Made by a program: the position numbers and the translations under genes. From sequence record OR352955.1: a DNA stretch of 64,000 nucleotides; one strand, 5' to 3'. The notes under the pieces are model-generated. The model ran no database searches and was not told where the DNA came from. It saw only the letters and a list, made by a program, of their open reading frames with translations. Position 1 is the stretch's first letter. Each line of letters begins with the position of its first letter. The stretch is from Escherichia phage AV125. Shown here in pieces: positions 7,677-42,741 of this stretch.

Positions 7677-7946
7677 TTAATGATTGGTGATGTTGATGAC
7701 AATCTTAGTTTCAACCTTAGCCCAACAGGAGTCTGCTTCATTAAAACGACTATTCACAATGTATTCTCCTGCACGAGAACCTGTTAAGCACACTGCACCT
7801 GTATCTGTAGCCAAATAGTATTCCCGTTCTTGTTCATCTACTTCTGCAATGTAATAGTAGAAAACAGACATAGGTTCAATTTCAGATAAACGGTATAACT
7901 TTGGAACAGGGGATTTCTCGATAAACTCAACAGAAGTTTTACTCAT
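7677..7946 (-). CDS. hypothetical protein (89 aa)
   Basis: ORF track. Confidence 0.5.
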   Translation of the reverse strand: MSKTSVEFIEKSPVPKLYRLSEIEPMSVFYYYIAEVDEQEREYYLATDTGAVCLTGSRAGEYIVNSRFNEADSCWAKVETKIVINITNH

Positions 7947-8179
7947 TTGTTTTCTCCTAGATCTAAACTAATTAAGAAGTCACGAAGGATGATCATTTGT
8001 TCTGTAGACAATGATAATACACCTTCTCCATAAATATCACCAGACCATTCAGCAGTTAGATCTAGTGTACCAGTACCAGGAAACCAATCAACAGTGATCT
8101 GATTACCATTAGAGTCAGGTAGTATTTCACTGACTAACATAACACACTCTCCTATTATTGTTCTTGATCTTACGATCAT
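7943..8179 (-). CDS. hypothetical protein (78 aa)
   Basis: ORF track; ATGA overlap. Confidence 0.5.
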   Translation of the reverse strand: MIVRSRTIIGECVMLVSEILPDSNGNQITVDWFPGTGTLDLTAEWSGDIYGEGVLSLSTEQMIILRDFLISLDLGENK

Positions 8180-8255
8180 CTACCGATAAGAACAAGTACT
8201 TAAATCTCTGTTCTTCGAACATCTAACGATAGAGATTAATCTATTACATAATCTA

Positions 8256-8313
8256 TACTCGCTATCGCTCGACCCTTCGGGGTTAGGGTAGCATATTTTT
8301 TGAAAAAAGTCAA
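8256..8313. repeat. copy 1 of ~60-bp repeated intergenic element
   Basis: TACTCGCTATCGCTCG ... TTAGGGTAGCATATTTTTTGAAAAAAGTCAA; second copy at 42547-42607. Confidence 0.7.
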
Positions 8314-8316
8314 CAC

Positions 8317-8634
8317 TTATTTTTTGGTAAGTAGATAAATCAATTGTTCACCTGCTTCTGGTGCATATAGTGCTTTAGTATCGAAGTCAAAGAAGTGAGT
8401 GACTCCTGTTACTTTGGATGCATGAATAGATAATCGTGCAAGCTTAAGCAGATTATCCATTTCCGCAATCTTTGCACGAAATACTGCACGTGTAGCGTCA
8501 AAAGCTGCATGTGGCATGTATTTACGATTTAGACTACTACGTTTAAATTTACGATAATCTGCAATGATCCTGTTACGTTCTTTGTTCAAGTGCTTTACCA
8601 GTGCAGTATATACATGTGGTTCTTTGTTAGCCAT
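8317..8634 (-). CDS. hypothetical protein (105 aa)
   Basis: Track ORF 8317..8667 shortened to ATG 8634 preceded by AGAGGAGA. Confidence 0.5.
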   Translation of the reverse strand: MANKEPHVYTALVKHLNKERNRIIADYRKFKRSSLNRKYMPHAAFDATRAVFRAKIAEMDNLLKLARLSIHASKVTGVTHFFDFDTKALYAPEAGEQLIYLLTKK

Positions 8635-17097: not shown

Positions 17098-17205
17098 GAT
17101 ATCGCCCTTTCTTTGTTGTGCGCCCTGGTTGGCGCGGTAGAAAGATAATAGCCCTTTTCTTTATATATAGCAAGCAAAAAGAAAATAAAAAAGATTGAAA
17201 AATGG

Positions 17206-17263
17206 TTGACGTTAACCAGGCGGCGGCGTAGTATTCATCTTGTAGGGCGGCAATGGTGCCGCT
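17206..17263 (+). promoter_or_regulatory. early promoter + leader stem-loop cassette 1
   Basis: TTGACG 17206; -10 TAGTAT 17229; hairpin GCGGCA-atgg-TGCCGC 17246-17263. Confidence 0.55.
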
Positions 17264-17283
17264 CACTATTTGGAGTTAAGATC

Positions 17284-17481
17284 ATGGCAACATTGCACAT
17301 TGTGGCGAAAGCTGGACAAATCAACGTAGTGGTAAACGGTTTTACTGAGTTCAGTCACCCCCAGGATGATCATGAAACGGTTTTATCTTTCATTGATTCC
17401 CTGTTAGAAATGGGAGTCATTACAGAAGACCAGCACGCTACAAAATGCAAGCGCGTTAATCAAATTGCAGGAATAGAATAA
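17284..17481 (+). CDS. small early protein (65 aa)
   Basis: Start moved to ATG 17284 after GGAG; track start 17206 is TTG of -35 box. Confidence 0.5.
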   Translation: MATLHIVAKAGQINVVVNGFTEFSHPQDDHETVLSFIDSLLEMGVITEDQHATKCKRVNQIAGIE

Positions 17482-17487
17482 AAAGTA

Positions 17488-17547
17488 TTGACAACAAACA
17501 ACAACCTGATAAGATGTATCACATAGGGCGGCGGAATGGTCCACCGC
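17488..17547 (+). promoter_or_regulatory. early promoter + leader stem-loop cassette 2
   Basis: TTGACA 17488; TAAGAT 17510; hairpin GGCGGCGGA-atgg-TCCACCGC. Confidence 0.55.
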
Positions 17548-17572
17548 TCACAACAGAAGAGAGATTATCATC

Positions 17573-17845
17573 ATGGCATCATATAGCGCAACAATGATCG
17601 TAGCTGGCACCACTGGTAAACCTATGCGCGGTGGCGGATCTTTCGCTAATATCAATATTGACGGGCGTTTATCCCTGGACGCAGCGATCACCGTGGCGCG
17701 GGAAACATTTAAGAAAGAATGTAAATTCAATAAACAAGATTATCTCGGTTTTGCTATTGAAAAAACCGCGCGCTTTGTTGATTATAAAAGCCCGAAAATG
17801 GTTGACACTACATTAAAAGCGCAAGATGTAGCGTTTTTGTTTTAA
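17573..17845 (+). CDS. small early protein (90 aa)
   Basis: ORF track; AGAGAGA upstream. Confidence 0.5.
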   Translation: MASYSATMIVAGTTGKPMRGGGSFANINIDGRLSLDAAITVARETFKKECKFNKQDYLGFAIEKTARFVDYKSPKMVDTTLKAQDVAFLF

Positions 17846-17848
17846 GGC

Positions 17849-17904
17849 TTGACATTAACGAATAATTTGTTAATATGTTACATAAAGCGGGAATAGTTCC
17901 CGCT
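17849..17904 (+). promoter_or_regulatory. early promoter + leader stem-loop cassette 3
   Basis: TTGACA 17849; TAATAT 17871; hairpin GCGGGAA-tag-TTCCCGC. Confidence 0.55.
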
Positions 17905-17921
17905 ATTTGTAAGGTGGTAGA

Positions 17922-18179
17922 ATGTTTTACATCAAATTAAAAGGTCACGTGATCGCGTTCAAAGATAACGCTTTTTACAGATTAGCAAAATATGCGTTAA
18001 TACATCCCCACTATGTTTATATAAGGGGGCGTGATGAAATAAATATCTTTGATCAAACAACATGCGAGAACATCGAGATCCGCAAGGTTGGCGTACGTGA
18101 TTATCGTACATCTTTCTACCCTTGCAAGGATTCAGCAAGTCTTTTTAAAGTATGCCAATTGTTGAAAAAAGGTGGTTAA
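17922..18179 (+). CDS. small early protein (85 aa)
   Basis: ORF track. Confidence 0.5.
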   Translation: MFYIKLKGHVIAFKDNAFYRLAKYALIHPHYVYIRGRDEINIFDQTTCENIEIRKVGVRDYRTSFYPCKDSASLFKVCQLLKKGG

Positions 18180-18180
18180 T

Positions 18181-18738
18181 ATGGGCCGCGAATATGTGAT
18201 CCAGTCTTGGGTAAAACATGAAGCAGATGATCCGCGCATCATTCCCGATCATCTTATCGATGAATCCACGGGATATAGTGGTGAGCAAATAGGTAACAGA
18301 TTAGCACGTAGTAACGGCAACGTAAAAGCGCGTTATGTGCGCCCTGGCTGGCTGGCAAATGGTAACGCTGATTTATCCAGTGCGGAAGATGCGAGCGACG
18401 GCGCGAAAGATAATCCTTTGTACAAAGTTGATCCAGCTTTTCGTGTCCTGGATGAATACCCCAGCAAGATAGCGGCGCTCGATCAGGCCCTGGAAAGTAA
18501 GCGCATCACCTGGACCGCTTACAACATGGCAAAAAACGTACTTGATAGTAAATTGATTCAAGCTGAAAGAAAATTAGCCAAAATTGCAGCCATAGCCCAG
18601 GAGGAAGACGAGGAGACAACGGAAGAGGAAGAGTACGAAGAGATCCCGCCGTTGTTGTGTGTTGATGCTTTTCCTGATTATCAGCCGACAGAGGAAGAAA
18701 AAAGGATCGCACTAGAAAACTTTGAAAATAGTCTTTGA
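18181..18738 (+). CDS. hypothetical protein (185 aa), acidic C-terminal tail
   Basis: Track ORF 18172 (GTG) shortened to ATG 18181 after AAGGTGG. Confidence 0.5.
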   Translation: MGREYVIQSWVKHEADDPRIIPDHLIDESTGYSGEQIGNRLARSNGNVKARYVRPGWLANGNADLSSAEDASDGAKDNPLYKVDPAFRVLDEYPSKIAALDQALESKRITWTAYNMAKNVLDSKLIQAERKLAKIAAIAQEEDEETTEEEEYEEIPPLLCVDAFPDYQPTEEEKRIALENFENSL

Positions 18739-18791
18739 CATATCGCCGCCACTGGCATAATATTTACCACGTAGGGCGGCAATGGTGCCGC
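18735..18791 (+). promoter_or_regulatory. early promoter + leader stem-loop cassette 4
   Basis: TTGACA 18735; TAATAT 18758; hairpin GGGCGGCAATGGTGCCGC. Confidence 0.55.
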
Positions 18792-18820
18792 TCATAGTGA
18801 AATTATGCAAGAGGCTTACA

Positions 18821-18916
18821 ATGATTAATAAAGAAAATAGCTTGACGGTTGGAACGATTAACGCTATCATTCTAGCCGTTCCATTTTGGGTTGTAGTAGC
18901 GGCTATTATTTTCTAA
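18821..18916 (+). CDS. tiny hydrophobic peptide (31 aa)
   Basis: Own translation MINKENSLTVGTINAIILAVPFWVVVAAIIF after cassette 4. Confidence 0.3.
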   Translation: MINKENSLTVGTINAIILAVPFWVVVAAIIF

Positions 18917-18924
18917 AAATATTC

Positions 18925-18985
18925 TTGACAACGTTTTTTAATCTGATAAGATGTATCACATAGGGCGGCGGAATACTTCCCCGCC
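18925..18985 (+). promoter_or_regulatory. early promoter + leader stem-loop cassette 5
   Basis: TTGACA 18925; TAAGAT 18947; hairpin GGCGGCGGAATACTTCCCCGCC. Confidence 0.55.
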
Positions 18986-19006
18986 AAAACAAAAAAGGGT
19001 AACACA

Positions 19007-19369
19007 ATGAGCAAGCAAATCAATACTATCATGTTTAATCTGGTATCTTTCCGCGATGATATGAAAAATTTACCACGTGAAACGGTTGATATTCATGTTT
19101 CAGCTTATCGCGCCCTTATTGACATGTTACCGCTAAAACGTGATCAACATGCCGCTAATATGATGCTTAATGCTATGCTTAAAAAGATGATTCAAACGGA
19201 TCTTACTCTGGCGTATGAGTATCAAGGGCGCTTATATGCGACTTACAACAAAGCGGTACCTGGTCTGGGAAGTACCGAAGAGTTGCACGGCTTAAACCTG
19301 GATCAAAACACTTGGGATAGTATGCGCCGCGTTATGGTATGGGCCGAAAGCGGTAAAATTTACGAATAA
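19007..19369 (+). CDS. small early protein (120 aa)
   Basis: ORF track. Confidence 0.55.
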   Translation: MSKQINTIMFNLVSFRDDMKNLPRETVDIHVSAYRALIDMLPLKRDQHAANMMLNAMLKKMIQTDLTLAYEYQGRLYATYNKAVPGLGSTEELHGLNLDQNTWDSMRRVMVWAESGKIYE

Positions 19370-19375
19370 AAACGG

Positions 19376-19435
19376 TTGACACTGTTTAAAATGCTGGTAT
19401 AGTTTATCACATAGGGCGGGAAGTGGTTTCCCGCC
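19376..19435 (+). promoter_or_regulatory. early promoter + leader stem-loop cassette 6
   Basis: TTGACA 19376; TATAGT 19398; hairpin GGCGGGAA-gtggt-TTCCCGCC. Confidence 0.55.
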
Positions 19436-19457
19436 AACAATGAAAAAGGTTATCATC

Positions 19458-19823
19458 ATGGCTATTAATATTAATGTTTCCGCTTATGCTACCCTGGCTA
19501 ACACGGCTAAAATTGAATTATCCAGCATTGAGGCGGTGCATATTAGCGCCCGTCGCTGGTTTCAACAGTCCTACGGTAACACGTATTTTTCTTTAATGGT
19601 TGACGTTGAGATCGGCGGTAAACTGATCGAGGTGGTTAACGTTCCGTTTCAATATGGCTATGGTGATCATTTTGATACCGTCGCCCTGGAAGAATTTAGC
19701 AAGGTTATCAACCTTGAGGGCAAGGAATTTTCACGCGGCGCGTATCTTTCCCGTTTTTGCCGTGACAATGGGATCACTGTATACAGTCATGCAAGCGATG
19801 TTAAACGTAAAAAAGATCTATAA
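19458..19823 (+). CDS. small early protein (121 aa)
   Basis: Start moved to ATG 19458, the conserved atcatcATGgc context shared with other cassettes. Confidence 0.5.
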   Translation: MAININVSAYATLANTAKIELSSIEAVHISARRWFQQSYGNTYFSLMVDVEIGGKLIEVVNVPFQYGYGDHFDTVALEEFSKVINLEGKEFSRGAYLSRFCRDNGITVYSHASDVKRKKDL

Positions 19824-19829
19824 AAAGCA

Positions 19830-19888
19830 TTGACAGCACGAATAAAAAGAGTAAACTGTATTACATAGAGAGCGGGAACACTTCCCGC
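19830..19888 (+). promoter_or_regulatory. early promoter + leader stem-loop cassette 7
   Basis: TTGACA 19830; TAAACT 19852; hairpin GCGGGAA-cac-TTCCCGC. Confidence 0.55.
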
Positions 19889-19912
19889 CTCACTGAAAAA
19901 GAGAGAAAAATC

Positions 19913-20152
19913 ATGGCTAAATCTAAAATGTACAACGGTCACAAAAACAAAACTCATTGGAATGTAAGCCTGTGGATTAATAACGATGAGGGATTGTATC
20001 GGTTTGCATTGGGATTGATCAATGAGTGCGGTAATAAAGATCAGGCGGCTGATTTAATGTGCTACCGTTTGAAACAGGATGGAATCACTACAACGCCAGA
20101 CGGCTTTAAGTATAGTAAAACTGCAATCCGCGCCGCTATGGTTGGAATGTAA
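19913..20152 (+). CDS. small early protein (79 aa)
   Basis: ORF track. Confidence 0.5.
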   Translation: MAKSKMYNGHKNKTHWNVSLWINNDEGLYRFALGLINECGNKDQAADLMCYRLKQDGITTTPDGFKYSKTAIRAAMVGM

Positions 20153-20161
20153 TAAAAACAG

Positions 20162-20221
20162 TTGACAACGTTTAAAATTAGTGTAAGATGTATCACATAG
20201 GGCGGGAAGTGGTTTCCCGCC
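20162..20221 (+). promoter_or_regulatory. early promoter + leader stem-loop cassette 8
   Basis: TTGACA 20162; TAAGAT 20184; hairpin GGCGGGAAGTGGTTTCCCGCC. Confidence 0.55.
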
Positions 20222-20243
20222 AACAACAGAGAGATTAAAGATT

Positions 20244-20471
20244 ATGGCTATCAATATTGTTCGTGTATCCGGCACCGTTGGCAGTTCCCAGGTTGTAGCA
20301 GTTGTAACAAACAAAAAGATTAATGATGTATGTGAGATCTTGAATAAGTGGGCTATTGCTAATTTTGGGGAATATGCAAGCGTTGAGTACATCGAATCCT
20401 GCCAGGTGCCGACCATCAGCCTAACCGATCTCAACGTTGATCGCCTGTTATGCCTGGATGAATTAATCTGA
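20244..20471 (+). CDS. small early protein (75 aa)
   Basis: ORF track. Confidence 0.5.
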   Translation: MAINIVRVSGTVGSSQVVAVVTNKKINDVCEILNKWAIANFGEYASVEYIESCQVPTISLTDLNVDRLLCLDELI

Positions 20472-20480
20472 AAAAGATTG

Positions 20481-20536
20481 TTGACACGGGAAAGAAAAAG
20501 AGTAAACTGTATTACGTAGGGCGGCAATAGTGCCGC
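20481..20536 (+). promoter_or_regulatory. early promoter + leader stem-loop cassette 9
   Basis: TTGACA 20481; TAAACT 20503; hairpin GGCGGCA-atag-TGCCGC. Confidence 0.55.
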
Positions 20537-20561
20537 TCACAACAGAAGAGAGATTATCACG

Positions 20562-20777
20562 ATGGCTAATATCCGTACACTGTTAAAAAATGCAAGTCAA
20601 GTTTTATTTTCAGATGACGAGTATTTCAACAAAGACATTACAGGCGTGAAAAATTTAAAAGACGTGAAGGATGTTATCGGTATCCGTGGATCTTTACGTA
20701 AAGGTGATATATACGGTAACAAGGTGCAATATAAACTGTCAAAAGATTATGATTTTACTTTGACAATTATTTCATAA
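20562..20777 (+). CDS. small early protein (71 aa)
   Basis: ORF track. Confidence 0.5.
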   Translation: MANIRTLLKNASQVLFSDDEYFNKDITGVKNLKDVKDVIGIRGSLRKGDIYGNKVQYKLSKDYDFTLTIIS

Positions 20778-20783
20778 AACCGC

Positions 20784-20845
20784 TTGCAATCTTAATAAAA
20801 TAAAGTAAACTGTATTACATCAAGGCGGCGGAATGGTCCACCGCC
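20784..20845 (+). promoter_or_regulatory. early promoter + leader stem-loop cassette 10
   Basis: TTGCAA 20784; TAAACT 20806; hairpin GGCGGCGGAATGGTCCACCGCC. Confidence 0.5.
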
Positions 20846-20869
20846 TAACAAAGAGAAGAGGAAAATATT

Positions 20870-21037
20870 ATGATCACTTTCGCTACCCGTGAAGCCGCTC
20901 GCAACGTTGCCCGTAAAGTTAACGCCGCCAACCTGGGCGCTACACTTAAAGCCCCGGTAAAAGATGCATCAGGCGCGTGGATCTTCCCTGGTCTGCGTCA
21001 CGCTGATAAGCTAGGCACTTTAAGCCTTAAAAAATAA
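20870..21037 (+). CDS. small early protein (55 aa)
   Basis: Own translation MITFATREAARNVARKVNAANLGATLKAPVKDASGAWIFPGLRHADKLGTLSLKK; not in ORF track (below 60 aa). Confidence 0.4.
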   Translation: MITFATREAARNVARKVNAANLGATLKAPVKDASGAWIFPGLRHADKLGTLSLKK

Positions 21038-21040
21038 TCG

Positions 21041-21078
21041 TTGACTTTTCGTTATAGCGCCTTATAATGGGCGCTATA
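21041..21078 (+). promoter_or_regulatory. early promoter cassette 11, variant in which the stem-loop encloses the -10 box
   Basis: TTGACT 21041; TATAAT 21063 lies in loop of TAGCGCC...GGCGCTA hairpin. Confidence 0.45.
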
Positions 21079-21111
21079 GAGAAGAGAAACCACTACTAAC
21101 AAGGAAACATC

Positions 21112-21333
21112 ATGATCACTTTCGCTATTGTCGCCGTTGTCGCTGGTCAGGTTTACGTAAACGAGACATTTACTACAGAAGACAAGGCCGCAGGAGATAT
21201 AACCGCCGTTTACAACGAGTGCAAGGCAGTAGAAAGGATGTTAGCGCCTTGTATGCTAATGAGTGAACGCCAGGACGGGATAACAGTATTTACTAACATT
21301 GAAACAGGGTACCAAATGGTAGTAACAAAATAA
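21112..21333 (+). CDS. small early protein (73 aa)
   Basis: ORF track; N-terminus MITFA shared with 20870 ORF. Confidence 0.5.
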   Translation: MITFAIVAVVAGQVYVNETFTTEDKAAGDITAVYNECKAVERMLAPCMLMSERQDGITVFTNIETGYQMVVTK

Positions 21334-21336
21334 AGC

Positions 21337-21393
21337 TTGACACGGATTTAATTTTCAGTAAACTGTTACACGTAGGGCGGGAATAGTTCCCGC
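21337..21393 (+). promoter_or_regulatory. early promoter + leader stem-loop cassette 12
   Basis: TTGACA 21337; TAAACT 21359; hairpin GCGGGAATAGTTCCCGC. Confidence 0.55.
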
Positions 21394-21412
21394 TCAAAAA
21401 GAGAGAAAGACC

Positions 21413-21766
21413 ATGAAAGCACAAAATGCAATTAAAGAGTACATCCTTGCCGCTATCGATTTTAATGATTACGGTATTACAACCGAAAAAGAGAAGATCG
21501 CGGAATTGATGCGCCGTTTTAATTCCGAGTACTGGTACCCTGATAACCAATCACGTTTTAATTATAGTATTGTTAAAGCACTTGCATCATGGTTACAAGG
21601 TTTGCCATCAGATATCAATATCGCTTTCGAATATTGGGAAATTGATCGCCTGTTAACATCCTGGGGATACATTAAAGAGAATAGCCGCGATGATAAAATC
21701 CAACGAGAAAGGGAAAATTATTGGCTTTATATTGCAGGCGTGATCCTTGCTTGCTCTTATGAATGA
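21413..21766 (+). CDS. small early protein (117 aa)
   Basis: ORF track. Confidence 0.55.
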   Translation: MKAQNAIKEYILAAIDFNDYGITTEKEKIAELMRRFNSEYWYPDNQSRFNYSIVKALASWLQGLPSDINIAFEYWEIDRLLTSWGYIKENSRDDKIQRERENYWLYIAGVILACSYE

Positions 21767-21772
21767 TAAACC

Positions 21773-21826
21773 TTGACAATTTTACAAAACAGTTTAAATT
21801 AACAATATAGCGGCAATGGTGCCGCT
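21773..21826 (+). promoter_or_regulatory. early promoter + leader stem-loop cassette 13
   Basis: TTGACA 21773; TAAATT near 21795; hairpin GCGGCAATGGTGCCGC. Confidence 0.5.
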
Positions 21827-21845
21827 CATATGAAGAGGAAACAAA

Positions 21846-21992
21846 ATGAATACATCTAATCGCGCAGAAAAAATTCAATCTTCCAAGATCCGCAAGGCCT
21901 GGAACGAGGAAGTGATCCGCAAAGGCGACAAGCGTAATAAAACAAAGCGCGGGAAGAGTGACAAATATAATTGGATGGATTTAGAGGATTAA
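21846..21992 (+). CDS. small basic protein (48 aa)
   Basis: Own translation MNTSNRAEKIQSSKIRKAWNEEVIRKGDKRNKTKRGKSDKYNWMDLED. Confidence 0.35.
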   Translation: MNTSNRAEKIQSSKIRKAWNEEVIRKGDKRNKTKRGKSDKYNWMDLED

Positions 21993-22000
21993 CATAACAA

Positions 22001-22026
22001 GGGCGCATCAAGCGCCCTTTCTTTTT
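22001..22026 (+). terminator. intrinsic terminator (copy 1 of a repeated terminator)
   Basis: GGGCGC-atcaa-GCGCCC then TTTCTTTTT; identical hairpin at 26912. Confidence 0.65.
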
Positions 22027-22047
22027 ACATGTAGAGGATAAACAAAA

Positions 22048-22233
22048 ATGACTTTAAACGAGCTTAAAACAGCCTACAACGCAACATTAAAAATAGCTGT
22101 GCGTTACCGTGATGCGTACGGTTTTATCGCGCAGGGCGTGATCCTGGGCTTTTCTGACGATGGTTTGATCTATGTTGATGCACATCACAACAAGGTTAAA
22201 CCGGAAAACGTTATCAATATAAAATATCTTTAA
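22048..22233 (+). CDS. small early protein (61 aa)
   Basis: ORF track. Confidence 0.45.
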   Translation: MTLNELKTAYNATLKIAVRYRDAYGFIAQGVILGFSDDGLIYVDAHHNKVKPENVINIKYL

Positions 22234-22239
22234 AAGTGG

Positions 22240-22298
22240 TTGACACCATAACCGGACCTGTTAAACTGTATTACATCAGGCGGGGAATAGTTCCCCAC
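22240..22298 (+). promoter_or_regulatory. early promoter + leader stem-loop cassette 14
   Basis: TTGACA 22240; TAAACT 22262; hairpin GGGGAA-tag-TTCCCC. Confidence 0.55.
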
Positions 22299-22318
22299 CA
22301 TACAAAAAGGTAAATATT

Positions 22319-22525
22319 ATGATCACCGCAAAACAAGAAAAAATCATTATCGACGTTGCAGCCGTTGCCGCTATTGCTATTATTGGATCTTATTATGATA
22401 CCCGTTTCCCGTCGGCTATGCATGAGATCGCCGCCGTTGCATCAGTTGGCGTGCTGTTTTACGTTGGTAAACGCTATTTATCACCAATGATTAACAAGCT
22501 GACACCGTGGAAAAATAAAGGTTGA
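22319..22525 (+). CDS. small membrane protein (68 aa)
   Basis: ORF track; hydrophobic IIIDVAAVAAIAIIGSYY. Confidence 0.5.
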   Translation: MITAKQEKIIIDVAAVAAIAIIGSYYDTRFPSAMHEIAAVASVGVLFYVGKRYLSPMINKLTPWKNKG

Positions 22526-22576
22526 TCCTGTTTTACATTGTGTTATAGTTATCGTGTAGGGCGGCAATGGTGCCGC
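22522..22576 (+). promoter_or_regulatory. early promoter + leader stem-loop cassette 15
   Basis: TTGATC 22522; TATAGT 22544; hairpin GGCGGCAATGGTGCCGC. Confidence 0.5.
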
Positions 22577-22596
22577 GCCCCTTTGAGGATGCAATC

Positions 22597-22881
22597 ATGA
22601 GTAAAGCTAACACCGTGCTAATGTTTTCCCTGATTAATGATCTCGCTTACTTGTCCAACATGACGCAGGAGGGTAACACATTAACGGCAACATTCACCAA
22701 TAAGCTTGACCGAGTGATCATCATCTCACTGAAAACAGTTAGTAAAGGCTTTTACTCGTTAGCTTATCATTGGATCACCGATACCGATGAGACAAGCCAG
22801 GACTATAGCGCCCCTTTTCCTGAATCAATGGCACGGGAGATCATCGCCGCCGTTGTAAATGATGGTTTGTTTACTGCATAA
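22597..22881 (+). CDS. small early protein (94 aa)
   Basis: Start moved to ATG 22597 after GAGGATG; track start 22567 lies in the hairpin loop. Confidence 0.5.
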   Translation: MSKANTVLMFSLINDLAYLSNMTQEGNTLTATFTNKLDRVIIISLKTVSKGFYSLAYHWITDTDETSQDYSAPFPESMAREIIAAVVNDGLFTA

Positions 22882-22898
22882 ATAATTTAGAAAAAGGC

Positions 22899-22955
22899 TT
22901 GCAATCATTTTGAGATAGTGTATATTTAATTCATAGGGCGGCGGGAATAGTTCCC
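22899..22955 (+). promoter_or_regulatory. early promoter + leader stem-loop cassette 16
   Basis: TTGCAA 22899; TATATT 22921; hairpin GGGAA-tag-TTCCC. Confidence 0.5.
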
Positions 22956-22978
22956 AAAGCAAATGAGAGGATTACACG

Positions 22979-23098
22979 ATGAGCAAGTACACAGTAGAAT
23001 ACACGGTAGAAAATCCGGCAGTATCCGAAGGTAAAAAGATGACATTTGCCATCAGTATAATCGCTTTCGTTGTCACTATCTTATCAATCATCTTATAA
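22979..23098 (+). CDS. tiny membrane peptide (39 aa)
   Basis: Own translation MSKYTVEYTVENPAVSEGKKMTFAISIIAFVVTILSIIL after GAGAGGA. Confidence 0.35.
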   Translation: MSKYTVEYTVENPAVSEGKKMTFAISIIAFVVTILSIIL

Positions 23099-23108
23099 GG
23101 TGCACACC

Positions 23109-23270
23109 ATGAAAATAGCAGACATTATCAAAGAGATCGCCCTTGCCGCTGGCGTTGAGGTCGAGGAAGTGATCGCGCTCAATCTTACAGAAAACGATCT
23201 GCGCAACTATGAAGCGGAAAGCGTGAAAGCAAGCGGCGCGGTCCTGGTATATGATCCGGCTAACAAGTAA
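23109..23270 (+). CDS. small early protein (53 aa)
   Basis: Start at ATG 23109; track start 23070 would lie inside the preceding peptide gene. Confidence 0.4.
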   Translation: MKIADIIKEIALAAGVEVEEVIALNLTENDLRNYEAESVKASGAVLVYDPANK

Positions 23271-23390
23271 GGGGATAACATGAATCCGAAAGATATGCAA
23301 GCATGGAAAGGGTACGACGATCTAAGCGCCTTGCGCAATAAGTCAAGCCGTAACCTTAGACGGTTGGAAGCAAAGAAAAAGAAAAAATAG

Positions 23391-23446
23391 TTTGACAAGT
23401 CCGCGTAGTCTGGTAATATGTATCTTGTAGGGCGGCAATGGTGCCG
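23391..23446 (+). promoter_or_regulatory. early promoter + leader stem-loop cassette 17
   Basis: TTGACA 23391; TAATAT 23413; hairpin GGGCGGCAATGGTGCCGC. Confidence 0.55.
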
Positions 23447-23468
23447 CTCACAAGAAGAGAGAAAAATC

Positions 23469-23753
23469 ATGAAAATCACAAAAAGCCTGACTAATTATGC
23501 AGCACGTCGCGGATTATGTTTAACTGTTGAAAACTTAGGGAAAGAAGACTTTTTGTGTTTTTGGGAGCTTGAAAATGATTGCGAGTGGATGTTTTCTTAT
23601 TCTATCTGCGAAGATCAAAACGGTTGTTTGTTAACTTGGCGCGGTAATATCTATTTACCGGAAGAAATTAAAGAAGAGTTACCAGGTACGATCATGACAG
23701 AGAGACAGCTTAAGGAAGTGATCAATTTTGTAGGGCAAAACATTAAAAAATAA
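23469..23753 (+). CDS. small early protein (94 aa), cysteine/tryptophan-rich
   Basis: Start moved to ATG 23469; track start 23418 lies in the hairpin loop. Confidence 0.5.
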   Translation: MKITKSLTNYAARRGLCLTVENLGKEDFLCFWELENDCEWMFSYSICEDQNGCLLTWRGNIYLPEEIKEELPGTIMTERQLKEVINFVGQNIKK

Positions 23754-23754
23754 T

Positions 23755-23816
23755 TTGACAACAGGCAAACAACGTAGTAAAGTTTATTACATAGAGCGGC
23801 GGAATGGTCCACCGCT
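23755..23816 (+). promoter_or_regulatory. early promoter + leader stem-loop cassette 18
   Basis: TTGACA 23755; TAAAGT 23778; hairpin GCGGCGGAATGGTCCACCGC. Confidence 0.55.
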
Positions 23817-23838
23817 CACAACAGAAGAGAAACAAATC

Positions 23839-24009
23839 ATGATCCCGACTATGTTTTATGTATCGCGCAAAGGTCACAATATTTTTTGGTCTGAAGATTT
23901 AAATGAAGCTATGACGTTTGCCCGTGATCGTGTTGCTATCGGTGGCGTTAACATCACCGTAACCGATGAAAATGGCATTGAATACTATAACGGCAACGAT
24001 GAAGAATAA
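23839..24009 (+). CDS. small early protein (56 aa)
   Basis: Start ATG 23839 (MIPTMFYVSRKGHNIFW...); track start 23755 lies in promoter. Confidence 0.45.
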   Translation: MIPTMFYVSRKGHNIFWSEDLNEAMTFARDRVAIGGVNITVTDENGIEYYNGNDEE

Positions 24010-24015
24010 TTAATG

Positions 24016-24038
24016 AGGCGGGGGAGTATTCCCCGCCG
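24016..24038 (+). promoter_or_regulatory. intercistronic leader stem-loop with no promoter upstream
   Basis: GGCGGGGGA-gtat-TCCCCGCC immediately before RBS of 24057 gene. Confidence 0.5.
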
Positions 24039-24056
24039 TCAATAAAGAGGTAAATC

Positions 24057-24326
24057 ATGAAAATATCATTGGACGTTGCAATCAAGGCCATCGAATCCGG
24101 TTACATCCTGGTAAAAGATGATAAGGCTAAAACCGTGCACCACGTTAACAAAGAAACAGGCGAAAGCATGATCACATATAAAGCCGCCTACTTTCTCCAA
24201 TCAGTAGCAGATCCGCGCGTACAACGCCAGGTTACAGCGGCTATTGCTAAAAAATTATGTGCTTTACAGGGTATAAGTTTTAACGAGATCGCCCCGTGTT
24301 TTGACTGGTCGAGCTTGAAAAAATAG
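24057..24326 (+). CDS. small early protein (89 aa)
   Basis: ORF track. Confidence 0.5.
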   Translation: MKISLDVAIKAIESGYILVKDDKAKTVHHVNKETGESMITYKAAYFLQSVADPRVQRQVTAAIAKKLCALQGISFNEIAPCFDWSSLKK

Positions 24327-24327
24327 T

Positions 24328-24389
24328 TTGACAACAATTATAAATCGGGTAGAATGTATTTCGTAGGGCGGGGCAATAAGGCAACGCCC
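24328..24389 (+). promoter_or_regulatory. early promoter + variant leader stem-loop cassette 19
   Basis: TTGACA 24328; TAGAAT 24350; hairpin GGGCG...CGCCC. Confidence 0.5.
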
Positions 24390-24407
24390 ATTAATGAGGG
24401 TAGAATC

Positions 24408-24512
24408 ATGTTAGAGAAAATTTTCACGGTTGTAATAGTGGGCCTGGCGTTATCGGTTGGAGGGGTTGCAACTATGGCTAACATGATCCTATCTTCCCAC
24501 GGTATCGGCTAA
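24408..24512 (+). CDS. tiny membrane peptide (34 aa)
   Basis: Own translation MLEKIFTVVIVGLALSVGGVATMANMILSSHGIG. Confidence 0.3.
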   Translation: MLEKIFTVVIVGLALSVGGVATMANMILSSHGIG

Positions 24513-24522
24513 GGTGAAACAA

Positions 24523-24738
24523 ATGATCACGAATAAGACAGGTAAAACGGAATTTTTACGCGGCTTGCAAGTTGGTAAACCTGAGATCTGGCATTGTACT
24601 AAATCCGCGCATAATGAAATGAAAGATTTTACCGCTACTTTACAACGTGTTAAAATATCTATCACACAGAAAAAAGCCTTGTTAGTAGTAGAAAACGAGA
24701 TCCCGCAAACTATTATTATTGTCGAGCGTACAGCATGA
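24523..24738 (+). CDS. small early protein (71 aa)
   Basis: Track ORF 24514 (GTG) shortened to ATG 24523 after AAGGTG. Confidence 0.45.
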   Translation: MITNKTGKTEFLRGLQVGKPEIWHCTKSAHNEMKDFTATLQRVKISITQKKALLVVENEIPQTIIIVERTA

Positions 24739-25121
24739 AAACAGAAATCATTATTGAAATCATCAACGGTTATAAAGAAGCCTTTATTTTTGCTGAATCA
24801 GCAAGGGATCATGAAGGTAATTTTATTGAAAACTTAGACGATTATGATTTTTCTCCTAGCGCGGACGAACGGATCGCCCAGGATGTAACAGCCTTTATTA
24901 ATGCTAATCTTGCCGCTATCTCTGAGGCAATGAGCGACGGCGCAACAGCCAACCAGATCGGGAATGATTTACATTTTACCCGTAACGGTCACGGCGTAGG
25001 CTTTTGGGATCGCCCTGAAATATACACCACTAACACGGCGAACCGCCTAACCAATGCAGCTAAGTTTATGCCGAACGTGTCGGCTTACATTGGTGAAGAT
25101 AATTTGATTTATATTGAATAA
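24735..25121 (+). CDS. small early protein (128 aa)
   Basis: ATGA overlap with upstream gene. Confidence 0.55.
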   Translation: MKTEIIIEIINGYKEAFIFAESARDHEGNFIENLDDYDFSPSADERIAQDVTAFINANLAAISEAMSDGATANQIGNDLHFTRNGHGVGFWDRPEIYTTNTANRLTNAAKFMPNVSAYIGEDNLIYIE

Positions 25122-25127
25122 AAAGTA

Positions 25128-25183
25128 TTGACACAGATCGCCAGTGTGCTAATATTTACCACGTAGGGCGGCAATGGTGCCGC
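25128..25183 (+). promoter_or_regulatory. early promoter + leader stem-loop cassette 20
   Basis: TTGACA 25128; TAATAT 25150; hairpin GGGCGGCAATGGTGCCGCC. Confidence 0.55.
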
Positions 25184-25202
25184 CGATAATGAGGAAAGTA
25201 AA

Positions 25203-25502
25203 ATGGAAACTATCGCTATTGTTACCGTAGAAAAACTGGTTGTTGGTGATGTATTCGCGTTAATGGTGCCTAACAGCAGCAAGCTGGGCGCTTATGAAGT
25301 AATGGATCATAAAAATGAATCATTTGGCGACGGTTGCACAATGGCGGTAAAATCTTTAAAGGATGGAATCATCCGCCAGGCTAACTGGCACAAAGGGAAT
25401 CAAGTCGGTTTAATATCAGCTAATTTCTTGCCAGAAGAGCAAACGTTAGACCAACTATCAGGCGGTAAGACGTTAGCCGAACTACTGGAAACAGCGATCT
25501 AA
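25203..25502 (+). CDS. small early protein (99 aa)
   Basis: ORF track. Confidence 0.55.
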   Translation: METIAIVTVEKLVVGDVFALMVPNSSKLGAYEVMDHKNESFGDGCTMAVKSLKDGIIRQANWHKGNQVGLISANFLPEEQTLDQLSGGKTLAELLETAI

Positions 25503-25510
25503 TCAACAAA

Positions 25511-25526
25511 GGGGCGGCAACGCCCC
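25511..25526 (+). promoter_or_regulatory. intercistronic GNRA-type stem-loop
   Basis: GGGGCG-gcaa-CGCCCC, no T-run; precedes RBS of 25547 gene. Confidence 0.45.
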
Positions 25527-25546
25527 ACATCAGAAAGGAAAAGATT

Positions 25547-25783
25547 ATGAGTATTGCAACAGTATTAAACGCCGTTAAAACCGCTGAATCATCCGGCTTG
25601 CATGTTGAGCTTATAGATCAACCAGGTGGCGATCTCCTTGTCCAGGTTTACCCGCCGAAAGTAGGGGATGATTATTATTGGGCTTATTCTGATACGTTCG
25701 AACAAGTAGACACGAAAGCGATCACGGCTTTTATTTTAAAAGCTATTGAAGAAAATAACTTTCATCATAACATCAATCAATAA
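25547..25783 (+). CDS. small early protein (78 aa)
   Basis: ORF track. Confidence 0.5.
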   Translation: MSIATVLNAVKTAESSGLHVELIDQPGGDLLVQVYPPKVGDDYYWAYSDTFEQVDTKAITAFILKAIEENNFHHNINQ

Positions 25784-25792
25784 ACCATAAGC

Positions 25793-25808
25793 GGGGCGGT
25801 AACGCCCC
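25793..25808 (+). promoter_or_regulatory. intercistronic GNRA-type stem-loop
   Basis: GGGGCG-gtaa-CGCCCC, no T-run; precedes 25838 gene. Confidence 0.45.
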
Positions 25809-25837
25809 ATTAAACGCAATAGGAAGAGGATAGACGC

Positions 25838-26128
25838 ATGAAAAAGATGATCGCAGTAGTTGCCCTGGTTGTTGGTATTAACGCGCCTGTACTGGCTAAT
25901 GAGTTGCCAGAATCCATCACGCTAACCGATATCAACGCAATAAACCGGATCGGCGTTAATTATCGCCTATGCCTTGCCGCTAAAACTTTCCAGGACGGCA
26001 CGACAGAATACCACGGATTCGAGGGTATCCGCTGCGGTGAGCTTGCACGCGACCTTAAGGAAGATCCAGACCTTGAGGCCATACCGATGACCGTAAACGG
26101 TAAAGCTTACGTAAACCGCCAACAATGA
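25838..26128 (+). CDS. predicted secreted protein (96 aa)
   Basis: Signal-peptide-like MKKMIAVVALVVGINAPVLA. Confidence 0.55.
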   Translation: MKKMIAVVALVVGINAPVLANELPESITLTDINAINRIGVNYRLCLAAKTFQDGTTEYHGFEGIRCGELARDLKEDPDLEAIPMTVNGKAYVNRQQ

Positions 26129-26259
26129 GAAAGGTAATCATCACAATGGGGATCATAGTAGCGACACTGGCGCTTATCCCCTTCATGGTTGAATATGTGC
26201 TGATCAGTGTTGTCCTGGTAGTCAGTGACCTATTGGAAACGGTTGGCAACTGGTTTTAA
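26125..26259 (+). CDS. tiny membrane peptide (44 aa)
   Basis: Own translation MRKVIITMGIIVATLALIPFMVEYVLISVVLVVSDLLETVGNWF; ATGA overlap. Confidence 0.35.
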   Translation: MRKVIITMGIIVATLALIPFMVEYVLISVVLVVSDLLETVGNWF

Positions 26260-26436
26260 AAATAAGAAAAACAGGACTTGTTTTTGTTCTGTTTTTTGTT
26301 ATACTTATTGAACGGGCGGCACCTGGAAGCAGGGGAAGATAATCACCGGAAGACCCCGCTATATATTGATAACTAACGCCTATCAAACAACAAAACATCA
26401 AAGGAATAAACTATCAAATCTTTACAATTCTACCTA

Positions 26437-26480
26437 TTGACACCGGATCACGCTTACACTATTATTTATCACGTAGGGCA
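26437..26480 (+). promoter_or_regulatory. early promoter with conserved leader start but no stem-loop (cassette 21)
   Basis: TTGACA 26437; TATTAT 26460; TATCACGTAGGGC leader. Confidence 0.5.
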
Positions 26481-38737: not shown

Positions 38738-38766
38738 GAGGATACAGCAATGGTTTAGGAGTGGTT

Positions 38767-39438
38767 ATGAAAAAGTTTGTTGTTTACAGTCGTCTTTCTA
38801 AACAGAAAAAAGGTGAGGCACAATATGGTATGGAGAGCCAAGAGAACGATATCCGTTACTTCTTAGACTCTGTGCCTGATGCGGAAGTTATTGGTCAATT
38901 TTCTGAATACTATTCGGGTAAGGGCGATTGGAAGCAACGTAAGGAACTGGTTAAAGCGGTTGAAATGTGTAAAGCTACCGGAGCAACTTTATTGGTAGCT
39001 AAAGTTGACCGCTTGGGTCGTAACAACGCCTCCGTAGCAACTCTTCTAGAAATGATCGATGTTAAGATAGCCATCATGCCAGACGCAGATAAAATGGTTA
39101 TACAGCTTCTGTCTGTTCTGGCTGAACAAGAAGTTAGAGGTATTGCTGATCGTATTAAAAAGGGTCTTGCTGTAGCAAAAAGCAAAGGTGTTTTATTAGG
39201 CAGTGCTAATCCTAAAACTGCCGCTGCACGTAGAAAAGGAAAAATGGAATACAACTCTGTTAAAGCAGACGCTTTTGCAGAGACATTCCGTGAACGTTTG
39301 GAGATCCTTAGAGATTTAAATACACCTTACAAAACTATTGCTGAAAAATTCAATAGTAAGAAAATAGCAACAGCACGTGGTGGTAAATGGGATGCTAAAA
39401 CTGTTTCTCGTTTGTGTGCCAGACTGAACATTAAATAG
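38767..39438 (+). CDS. serine recombinase (resolvase/invertase family)
   Basis: 223 aa; N-terminal VVYSRLSKQKK (catalytic Ser context), LLVAKVDRLGRN and QLLSVLAEQEVRGIADRIKKGLAVAKSKGVLLG match resolvase catalytic-domain motifs as remembered. Confidence 0.7.
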   Translation: MKKFVVYSRLSKQKKGEAQYGMESQENDIRYFLDSVPDAEVIGQFSEYYSGKGDWKQRKELVKAVEMCKATGATLLVAKVDRLGRNNASVATLLEMIDVKIAIMPDADKMVIQLLSVLAEQEVRGIADRIKKGLAVAKSKGVLLGSANPKTAAARRKGKMEYNSVKADAFAETFRERLEILRDLNTPYKTIAEKFNSKKIATARGGKWDAKTVSRLCARLNIK

Positions 39439-42448: not shown

Positions 42449-42546
42449 TTAATAGATGGTAGATAGATGATCATAGTTTATCTACCTTCACTTACGTTTC
42501 ATACCTCACTATCGTGAGTAACATGAAACATTATTATATAGAAATC

Positions 42547-42607
42547 TACTACTCGCTATCGCTCGTAAACATATGTTTAGGGTACCATATTTTTTTGAAA
42601 AAGTCAA
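42547..42607. repeat. copy 2 of ~60-bp repeated intergenic element
   Basis: TACTCGCTATCGCTCG...TTAGGGTACCATATTTTTTTGAAAAAGTCAA; copy 1 at 8256-8313. Confidence 0.7.
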
Positions 42608-42741
42608 TGCTGATTCACCTATCAATTATCTGTTTAAGATAAGTCTTACCTATCAATCTAACTCTTAACTAGTATTGCACCTATAGTAAGACTATTCCTA
42701 TAGTTATTAACCCTCTTCTTCTGTAGAATGTAATTAGATCC

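Follow-up and report, generated by a model that had tools for sequence, protein, structure and literature searches.

A promoter-like repeat with a conserved leader hairpin in phAPEC8/phi92-like coliphages

What is a short element doing that stands twice in the same orientation, 34 kb apart, in a phage genome whose genes run with it at one place and against it at the other? We addressed this question in a 64,000-nucleotide stretch of Escherichia phage AV125 (sequence record OR352955.1), here called the window, in which two ~60-bp copies occupy positions 8256-8313 (copy 1) and 42550-42607 (copy 2). Read on the minus strand, both have the layout of a promoter followed by a small leader hairpin, and we consider it likely that they are promoter-plus-leader cassettes defining a small co-regulated class of transcription units, a class that is probably factor-dependent. 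This cassette of phAPEC8/phi92-like coliphages has not been described previously, and the promoter class was unannotated before.

The repeat and its promoter anatomy

Compared without gaps, the two copies are identical at 45 of 58 positions, or at 44 of 47 once an 11-nt spacer between two conserved blocks is set aside. The first block, the 16-mer TACTCGCTATCGCTCG, occurs exactly twice in the window, at 8256 and 42550; with up to three mismatches allowed, shuffled sequences gave a mean of 0.15 matches and none of 100 shuffles reached two. The 25-nt second block, TTAGGGTASCATATTTTTTGAAAAA, also occurs twice, at the same offset (shuffles, 0.00). Similarity extends a few bases to the left, to AATCTA (8250 and 42544), and ends after GTCAA. 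Genes lie on the minus strand up to ~9.7 kb, on the plus strand from 9.8 to ~45.7 kb and on the minus strand again beyond, which places copy 1 (8.3 kb) in a minus-strand block and copy 2 (42.6 kb) in a plus-strand block. The original prediction, made from the letters of the window, had described such a pair, equally oriented in opposite transcription blocks, and its positions and gene strands agree with ours; it began the second copy at 42547, a trivial offset from 42550, and ended it correctly at 42607.

The window belongs to Phapecoctavirus (phAPEC8/ESCO13-like, Stephanstirmvirinae) and is 99-100% identical to many records. Searching with 76 nt around copy 1 matched more than 60 Phapecoctavirus records, each genome at two places, and reached more diverged copies (76-83% identity) in Justusliebigvirus and in members of the subfamily from Klebsiella, Citrobacter and Salmonella, amounting to 208 places in 133 records; additional variants were gathered by pattern scans of IMG/VR and metagenomes. 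Because more than 60 Phapecoctavirus records retain the two copies and a diverged form recurs in other Stephanstirmvirinae, chance similarity between them is excluded; together with the shuffle controls, this conservation disposes of the chance resemblance of AT-rich sequence that the original prediction had named as its refuter. A profile of the variants further detected a third copy in the closely related phage ETEC-TG (OR786310; 65904-65972, plus strand; E 5e-8), in a region outside the window. The same three copies are present in VEcB (Justusliebigvirus), the third at L047:47266-47337 on the plus strand, and three were also found in PD06 and in two IMG/VR genomes, so that the pair first noticed is confirmed as part of a set of three per genome.

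Across 37 distinct variants from several genera, the minus-strand layout is TTGACT, 17 bp, TG-n-TACCCT-A(A), 10-16 variable nt and a box of the form CGAGCG(N1-2)AGCGAG. The -35 hexamer is TTGACT in 27 variants, TTTACT in nine (all of the copy-2 type) and TTGACA in one. The spacer comes in 29 distinct sequences, yet its length is 17 bp in all variants but one (36 of 37), which has 18 bp, and ATG(C/G)TACCCTA is invariant in all 37. A pyrimidine-purine step follows the -10 by 6-7 nt in nearly every variant. In copy 1, the -35 TTGACT (in both window copies a five-of-six match to TTGACA) lies at 8308-8313, the spacer at 8291-8307, ending in TGC with the extended -10 TG at 8292-8293, and the -10 TACCCT at 8285-8290; the corresponding parts of copy 2 lie at 42602-42607, 42585-42601 (ending in TGG) and 42579-42584, all on the minus strand. 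The extended -10 elements of the window copies, TGCTACCCT and TGGTACCCT, carry TG one base upstream of the hexamer and retain T-12, A-11 and T-7. Fixed hexamers at a fixed distance, a free spacer between them and the TG together form the signature of a sigma-70 extended -10 promoter, and by these sequence features the promoter part of our reading is well supported. The minus-strand TTGACT-17-TACCCT had been noticed before as a weak promoter-like arrangement; the promoter holds, and the word weak understated it, the invariant TG and the constant 17-bp spacing having been overlooked.

The variable region between the -10 and the box spans 8272-8284 in copy 1 (AACCCCGAAGGGT) and 42566-42578 in copy 2 (AAACATATGTTTA, a palindrome). 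By the usual spacing rules, transcription would start about 7 nt downstream of the -10, near 8278 (G) or 8277 in copy 1 and near 42572 (A) in copy 2. The 11-nt variable spacer of the original prediction is real and straddles this predicted start, and the dyad within it is weak and not universal. It is present in copy-1 types and in Phapecoctavirus copy 2, where ACC..GGT covaries with AAC..GTT, with energies of 0 to -4 kcal/mol (only -4 in copy 1 of the window), and is missing from copy 3 and from Justusliebigvirus copy 2. We dropped it as a candidate conserved hairpin in view of its weak energy, its absence from several paralogues and its being split by the predicted start.

A different repeat occurs in ~20 copies at 17200-26470 on the plus strand, consisting of an A-rich tract, TTGACA, a 16-17-bp spacer and TAAGAT, TAAACT or TAATAT, after which come GTATCACATAGGGCGG and a G+C-rich hairpin (e.g., GGCGGCAATGGTGCCGC). 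Their appearance is that of near-consensus early promoters, each bearing a 5' stem-loop and serving one small early gene.

A covarying hairpin and the strand that carries it

The box CGAGCG(N1-2)AGCGAG is the reverse complement of the first repeat block and reads CGAGCGATAGCGAG at 8258-8271 in copy 1 and at 42552-42565 in copy 2 (minus strand). In each complete genome (ETEC-TG and VEcB) it is found exactly three times, always behind a cassette promoter. It folds as CGAGC, a G-N-A or G-N-N-A loop and GCGAG, with the pairs C-G, G.A, A.G, G-C and C-G; the loop is GAUA in both window copies, and the loops seen overall are GAUA, GAA, GCA, GAAA, GGGA and GUAA, with GAAU as the single exception. RNAalifold recovered this fold unprompted in copy-1 leaders. 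Among 21 distinct sequences from all three paralogues, the closing pair is C-G in 13, A-U in seven and unpaired in one, and the switch between C-G and A-U arose separately within copies 1, 2 and 3. The covariation score of the box is 0.27, against 0.135 +/- 0.027 in shuffles (0 of 500 reached the observed value) and at most 0.145 with slid partners.

The fold also has a direction. Its outer U.G pairs exist only on the promoter-sense strand. Of seven sequences folded in that sense, six have the hairpin as their minimum-energy structure (-3.7 to -7.9 kcal/mol), and the complementary strand folds worse. The copy 2 box, extended by the flanking pairs UUUA/UAG(U), has a minimum-energy fold of -5.0 kcal/mol, compared with -1.8 on the opposite strand. 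Searches against Rfam gave no match at gathering score for the window or for the chromosomal islands described below, a permissive Rfam search around both copies returned only noise (E at least 1.5), and a tRNA scan of the window found none.

For copy 1, an alternative pairing of the box with ~8205-8225 is predicted. Within 8200-8271 (minus strand), the box pairs almost fully with a segment ~45-65 nt downstream (UCGAGCG with UGUUCGA, UAGCGA with UCGUUA), and in other genera GAGCGAA can pair with a conserved UUCGUUC that otherwise forms the leader hairpin. Such pairings may constitute an alternative-structure switch.

The strand preference bears on the view that it is the plus strand that works, as a terminator or structured RNA made of a hairpin and a T run. 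On the plus strand the spacer hairpins gain slightly in stability, with a UUCG loop in copy 1, a terminator scan lists 8272-8289 followed by AGCATATTTT, and copy 2 sits inside a plus-strand transcription unit. The T run, however, begins 12 nt past the stem and is not conserved, the spacer hairpin is lacking in several paralogues, and the units that hold copy 1 and most orthologues are on the minus strand; moreover, the box folds poorly on the plus strand (-0.6 and -1.8 kcal/mol), where its U.G pairs become C.A mismatches. We regard this view as highly improbable. An intrinsic terminator in particular was rejected on both strands, the minus strand having no U run after either hairpin and the plus-strand T run being distant and unconserved.

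Gene contexts of the three copies and of chromosomal relatives

Copies 1 and 3 are co-directional with their downstream genes in ETEC-TG and VEcB. Copy 1 lies 1.4 kb inside a block of leftward genes for replication and nucleotide metabolism, and the gene immediately before it encodes a conserved basic protein of ~100 aa. In five lineages or more, a small membrane-protein gene comes after it, with AGGAG and the ATG at ~95 nt; in the window, the remainder of the predicted 5' leader (8141-8257, minus strand) extends to an AGGAG ribosome site and to the ATG at 8140, and the first gene downstream (7943-8140, minus strand) encodes 65 aa of unknown function (PHROG 25113). The copy-1 leader of other genera contains a hairpin in which changes are compensatory and U.G pairs of the sense strand are frequent; this offers independent evidence for the minus strand as the RNA strand, although read-through from upstream promoters would be expected to yield the same. 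Copy 3 occupies a divergent region that heads the tRNA and virion block, and FKP3-like loci were assigned as its orthologues because the same PRPP synthetase gene follows. In ETEC-TG and VEcB, tracts of extreme A+T richness and another sigma-70-like promoter come within ~100-250 nt after copy 3.

The gene upstream of copy 1 (8317-8634, minus strand) ends 3 nt before the -35 and encodes a conserved basic protein of ~105 aa and unknown function (PHROG 14778), a homologue of which stands directly upstream of copy 1 in four lineages. Its AlphaFold model (pLDDT 77) is a long antiparallel helical hairpin with a small C-terminal part. No significant fold match was obtained (best PDB E at least 0.7), and DksA2, at rank 22 with E 2.5, is not evidence.

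Copy 2 differs in lying within the plus-strand early block, ~3 kb before its end, and pointing against the genes, a position and orientation kept in at least five lineages. Downstream of it, two hairpins are predicted: hairpin 1 at 42496-42529 (GTTTCAT...ATGAAAC, inner CTCAC-GATA-GTGAG) and hairpin 2 at 42458-42486 (GGTAGATA...TATCTACC), the latter annotated in phage ASO2A as a plus-strand rho-independent terminator. Beyond both lies the antisense of a plus-strand gene. Equivalent hairpins occur in other genera and in the islands, with covariation between TTTCATG-N5-CATGAAA and TTCCATG-N5-CATGGAA. They may terminate plus-strand early transcripts, and hairpin 2 would also end or structure a copy-2 RNA of ~90-135 nt. 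A cross-genus consensus fold of this RNA recovered the box pairs alone, the alignment being too poor for more. Upstream of the -35, two exact ACCTATCAAT repeats stand 31 bp apart (42617-42626 and 42648-42657), the proximal one inside a block AT(T/C)(G/A)AT(A/C)GG that the copy-2 cassettes of other genera also have upstream. A plus-strand open reading frame (ORF) over copy 2 (42514-42642; phAPEC8_0059, ASO2A_058; 39-42 aa) is largely cassette, and is probably not a gene, the repeat being present in copy 1 with no such ORF.

These contexts suggest how the class might operate. Host RNA polymerase with sigma-70 would bind TTGACT, the 17-bp spacer and TGnTACCCT, and the conserved hairpin with its tandem G.A and covarying closing pair would be transcribed within the first ~25 nt. 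Copy 1 would feed the leftward DNA-metabolism and replication block and copy 3 the tRNA and virion block, while copy 2, firing against the early block into its two hairpins, would yield a short structured non-coding or antisense RNA or would oppose early transcription. A single trans-acting factor, probably phage-made, could time or extend transcription from all three cassettes.

The constancy of this arrangement argues against recombination or mobility, in which the copies would be targets of a serine recombinase or homing endonuclease, or hotspots of module exchange. Direct repeats 34 kb apart, the frequency of HNH endonuclease genes in these genomes, the differences between genera in the genes flanking copy 1 and a genuine serine recombinase gene (38761-39438, plus strand; Resolvase N-terminal domain, E 5e-18) would fit such a role. 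Yet copy order, orientation and spacing are identical in every record inspected, with no deletion or inversion isomer seen; the fixed blocks have no dyad-symmetric core, the recombinase gene occupies a different block in VEcB and is thus unlinked to any copy, and a pair of hexamers held at a constant distance, together with a covarying hairpin, is the pattern of a transcription signal. A role of this kind is scarcely credible, and the recombination hotspot and homing-endonuclease target among the functions first proposed fall with it: no rearranged genomes were seen among those checked, and a conserved dyad site is lacking. A module boundary, proposed alongside them, survives loosely, in that flanking genes vary between genera while the cassette stays, and a regulatory site for a phage factor, the other function proposed, is plausible. 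The recombinase gene itself lies inside the early block of a strictly lytic-looking phage.

A stringent pattern scan with one genome per species also found the full cassette outside these phages, in large chromosomal contigs of Scandinavium, Buttiauxella and another bacterium and in an IMG/VR contig with a P4-like integrase (L070:4711-4770, plus strand; L127:5343-5390, L131:2952-2999 and L128:7350-7395, minus strand). Gene order is common to the four loci: an integrase gene is followed by the cassette, after which come 0.8-1.5 kb of ORF-poor DNA containing direct repeats, a pair of unknown ORFs, genes for endonuclease VII and a DUF5906 protein, and then a resolvase or restriction-modification genes (Eco29kI). 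The cassette heads an operon of the element and points with its genes. Because the DUF5906 proteins of two islands are 50% identical, the cassette is an old part of this island family. No protein is shared between islands and phage, and 5,426 complete E. coli genomes showed no similarity to the phage cassette or the island leader. When the cassette core was removed, a profile built from the island leader gave weak matches only (E 0.05-3.5), always to hairpin 1 after phage copy 2 and on the right strand; homology beyond the core is not established by them. The islands may be satellites of this phage group, and its recurrence in them is in keeping with promoters of a class that could be copied so as to track the programme of the phage.

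Otherwise the scan returned phage DNA binned in bacterial assemblies and, at a tRNA promoter, a single chance match. Phapecoctavirus DNA was seen inside the bins 'Proteobacteria bacterium OH_PFB_59' and 'Lysobacteraceae bacterium JHOS43', and records named Campylobacter phage B15, Acinetobacter phage vB_AbaM_ABPW7, Pseudomonas phage PsgM04F and Dompiswa phage TSP7_1 are at least 99% identical to E. coli Phapecoctavirus here; the host labels or binning of these entries are doubtful.

The pattern TACCCTA-N8-17-CGAGCG-N1-3-GCGAG additionally matched contigs of HTVC023P-type pelagiphages, as a divergent pair upstream of terminase. At L050:2033-2161 and ~25 similar IMG/VR loci (L051-L091), a pair of TACCCTA-N10-CGAGCG(A/G/C)AGCGAG lies in the gap between a leftward block and terminase, the middle loop base being the variable position in this family. 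A reversed-pattern control gave 34 chance stretches, mostly in G+C-rich contigs, and beyond the specified bases the pelagiphage matches have only the A before GCGAG in common. As homologues, these TACCCTA...CGAGCGNAGCGAG loci are indistinguishable from chance by that control, and we did not use them.

The island and copy-3 contexts are also where a DNA-level role in replication would find its support. The cassettes would then be promoter-primed (R-loop) origins or single-strand initiation hairpins, the promoter serving only to open or prime the DNA; T4 oriF and oriG and the T7 primary origin are the known origins with which we compared them. Few copies per genome, small hairpins that fold best on one strand, the very A+T-rich tracts after copy 3 in ETEC-TG and VEcB and the island cassette standing before 0.8-1.5 kb of ORF-poor repeat DNA that adjoins the DUF5906 gene are all compatible with this role. 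Against it, copies 1 and 2 have no A+T-rich unwinding tract after them, copy 1 is followed by a conventional leader, ribosome site and gene, and no tie was found between the cassette and phage replication proteins; cumulative GC skew turns only with gene direction and is uninformative on an origin. We judge this role improbable.

Weighing the cassette against known systems

Several observations weigh against a factor-dependent promoter-plus-leader cassette. TACCCT matches TATAAT at only three of six positions, and a simple promoter scan of the window lists neither cassette, because the hexamer keeps just the three most important -10 positions. With the start where it is predicted, the dyad that lies between -10 and box would be cut in two, which this reading does not account for. 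Hairpin energies are modest (-1.9 to -7.9 kcal/mol), and the closing pair of copy 1 in the window is broken (T.T); since just one sequence beats all its shuffles, the case for the hairpin is carried by covariation and not by energy. Copy 2 has no gene to drive, only hairpins downstream, and no canonical minus-strand terminator stands within several kb after it to delimit its product; for this copy we infer a short structured RNA or transcription opposing the early genes. The searchable literature contains no promoter or transcript study, and no transcript, start-site or binding data, for any Stephanstirmvirinae phage, and the motif strings appear in no paper in a relevant context. The dedicated factor, which would read TACCCTAA and/or the hairpin, is purely one that we infer, and the basic protein encoded at 8317-8634 was set aside as a candidate, its fold matches being uninformative.

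What suggests a trans-acting factor nonetheless is that the non-consensus -10 (TACCCTAA) is invariant and the hairpin is conserved at the level of sequence, across three paralogues, several genera and unrelated islands. The main rival dispenses with it: the copies would be plain constitutive host promoters whose hairpin protects the RNA 5' end, with no factor or timing, and copy 2 would be a leftover or would interfere. The promoter anatomy is identical under both explanations, and the ~20 other near-consensus early promoters of the window likewise carry an immediate 5' hairpin, so that the layout could be a house style. A stabiliser, however, needs structure, yet CGAGCG..AGCGAG and TACCCTAA are invariant across genera, paralogues and islands with unrelated flanks; an unchanged non-consensus -10 is unusual, and the position and orientation of copy 2 are kept in at least five lineages. 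We consider the constitutive explanation unlikely.

For phAPEC8/phi92-like phages, which are widely isolated and are candidates for therapy, the timing of gene expression is undescribed, and the cassette as we read it would supply three precise control points, two heading the largest operons and one opposing the early genes. The 13-14-nt hairpin could be used as bait for a factor that reads the cassette, and a search for satellites of this phage group, or for elements that sense its infection, could start from the cassettes in unrelated chromosomal islands. Should the hairpin be an antitermination or recruitment signal, it would join nut, put and ops as a new type; were it a stabiliser only, the cassette would be an ordinary promoter class, though one not annotated before.

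Among known systems, the cassette most plainly resembles sigma-70 extended -10 promoters with a 5' stem-loop, including the window's own early promoters, with its near-TTGACA -35, 17-bp spacer, TGn and a hairpin a few nt from the predicted 5' end. Unlike ordinary promoters of this kind, its -10 is fixed as TACCCT(AA), its hairpin is conserved in sequence as well as shape, and three cassettes occupy fixed places in each genome, one of them with no downstream gene. T4-type PeSL (promoter-early stem-loop) cassettes are numerous and border novel ORFs in plastic regions, and their stem-loop, a terminator, precedes the promoter. They too are short conserved promoter-plus-hairpin units repeated in a large lytic phage, with flanks that vary among relatives; here, in contrast, there are three copies at fixed positions with the hairpin downstream, and copy number and layout rule this class out. 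A serine-recombinase crossover site was likewise rejected, with no conserved dyad in the fixed blocks and no rearranged isomers in the genomes checked.

The RfaH recruitment site ops (GGCGGTAGnnTG) is read base-specifically at G5 and T6 in the non-template strand (PMC5995543). The cassette core GC-G(NN)A-GC is shaped like the ops hairpin (C3:G8 stem, loop G4-A7) and, as in ops, would be presented in the non-template strand in the leader of long, horizontally mobile operons. Its loop bases at G5/T6 are instead AT, TA, AA, GG or a single base, and T11-G12 is missing; relative to ops, the window box AGCGATAGCGAG has G1, G5 and T11 replaced, and T6 is absent in most orthologues. Because the bases G5 and T6 read by RfaH are not kept, an RfaH ops site is ruled out.

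In lambda nut (boxA/boxB) and HK022 put, leader RNA signals direct processive antitermination. The cassette shares with them its few copies, its position just past promoters of long operons and a small GNRA-like hairpin of conserved sequence. It differs in having no boxA-like CGCTCTT(T)A in the 10-16 variable nt before the box, and the missing boxA rules out a lambda-type nut site. The stems differ as well, the tandem G.A and G-N-A or G-N-N-A loop of the cassette contrasting with the 5-bp Watson-Crick stem and GNRA-like pentaloop of lambda boxB, to which an arginine-rich N protein binds, and no N-like protein was identified, no systematic search for one having been made. A hairpin-binding antiterminator could act at the cassette.

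The P4 late promoters are switched on by P2 Ogr and are thus helper-activated satellite promoters. Here the helper role of the phages is only putative, and the islands lie in Scandinavium, Buttiauxella and other contigs, not in complete E. coli genomes. By extension of such parallels, the cassette might be a portable control module, a suboptimal extended -10 with a G-N-A-loop, tandem-G.A hairpin that activates or antiterminates the long operons for replication and virion genes as well as an early-antisense RNA, through a Stephanstirmvirinae factor or through the hairpin, as RNA or non-template DNA, acting on RNA polymerase as nut, put or ops do, and that a family of enterobacterial islands copied to couple an operon to infection, as in satellite-helper promoter mimicry; we think this rather unlikely in its full form. 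What the cassette has in common with the P4/P2 pair is one promoter type found both in a phage and in integrase-bearing chromosomal elements with which it has no protein in common.

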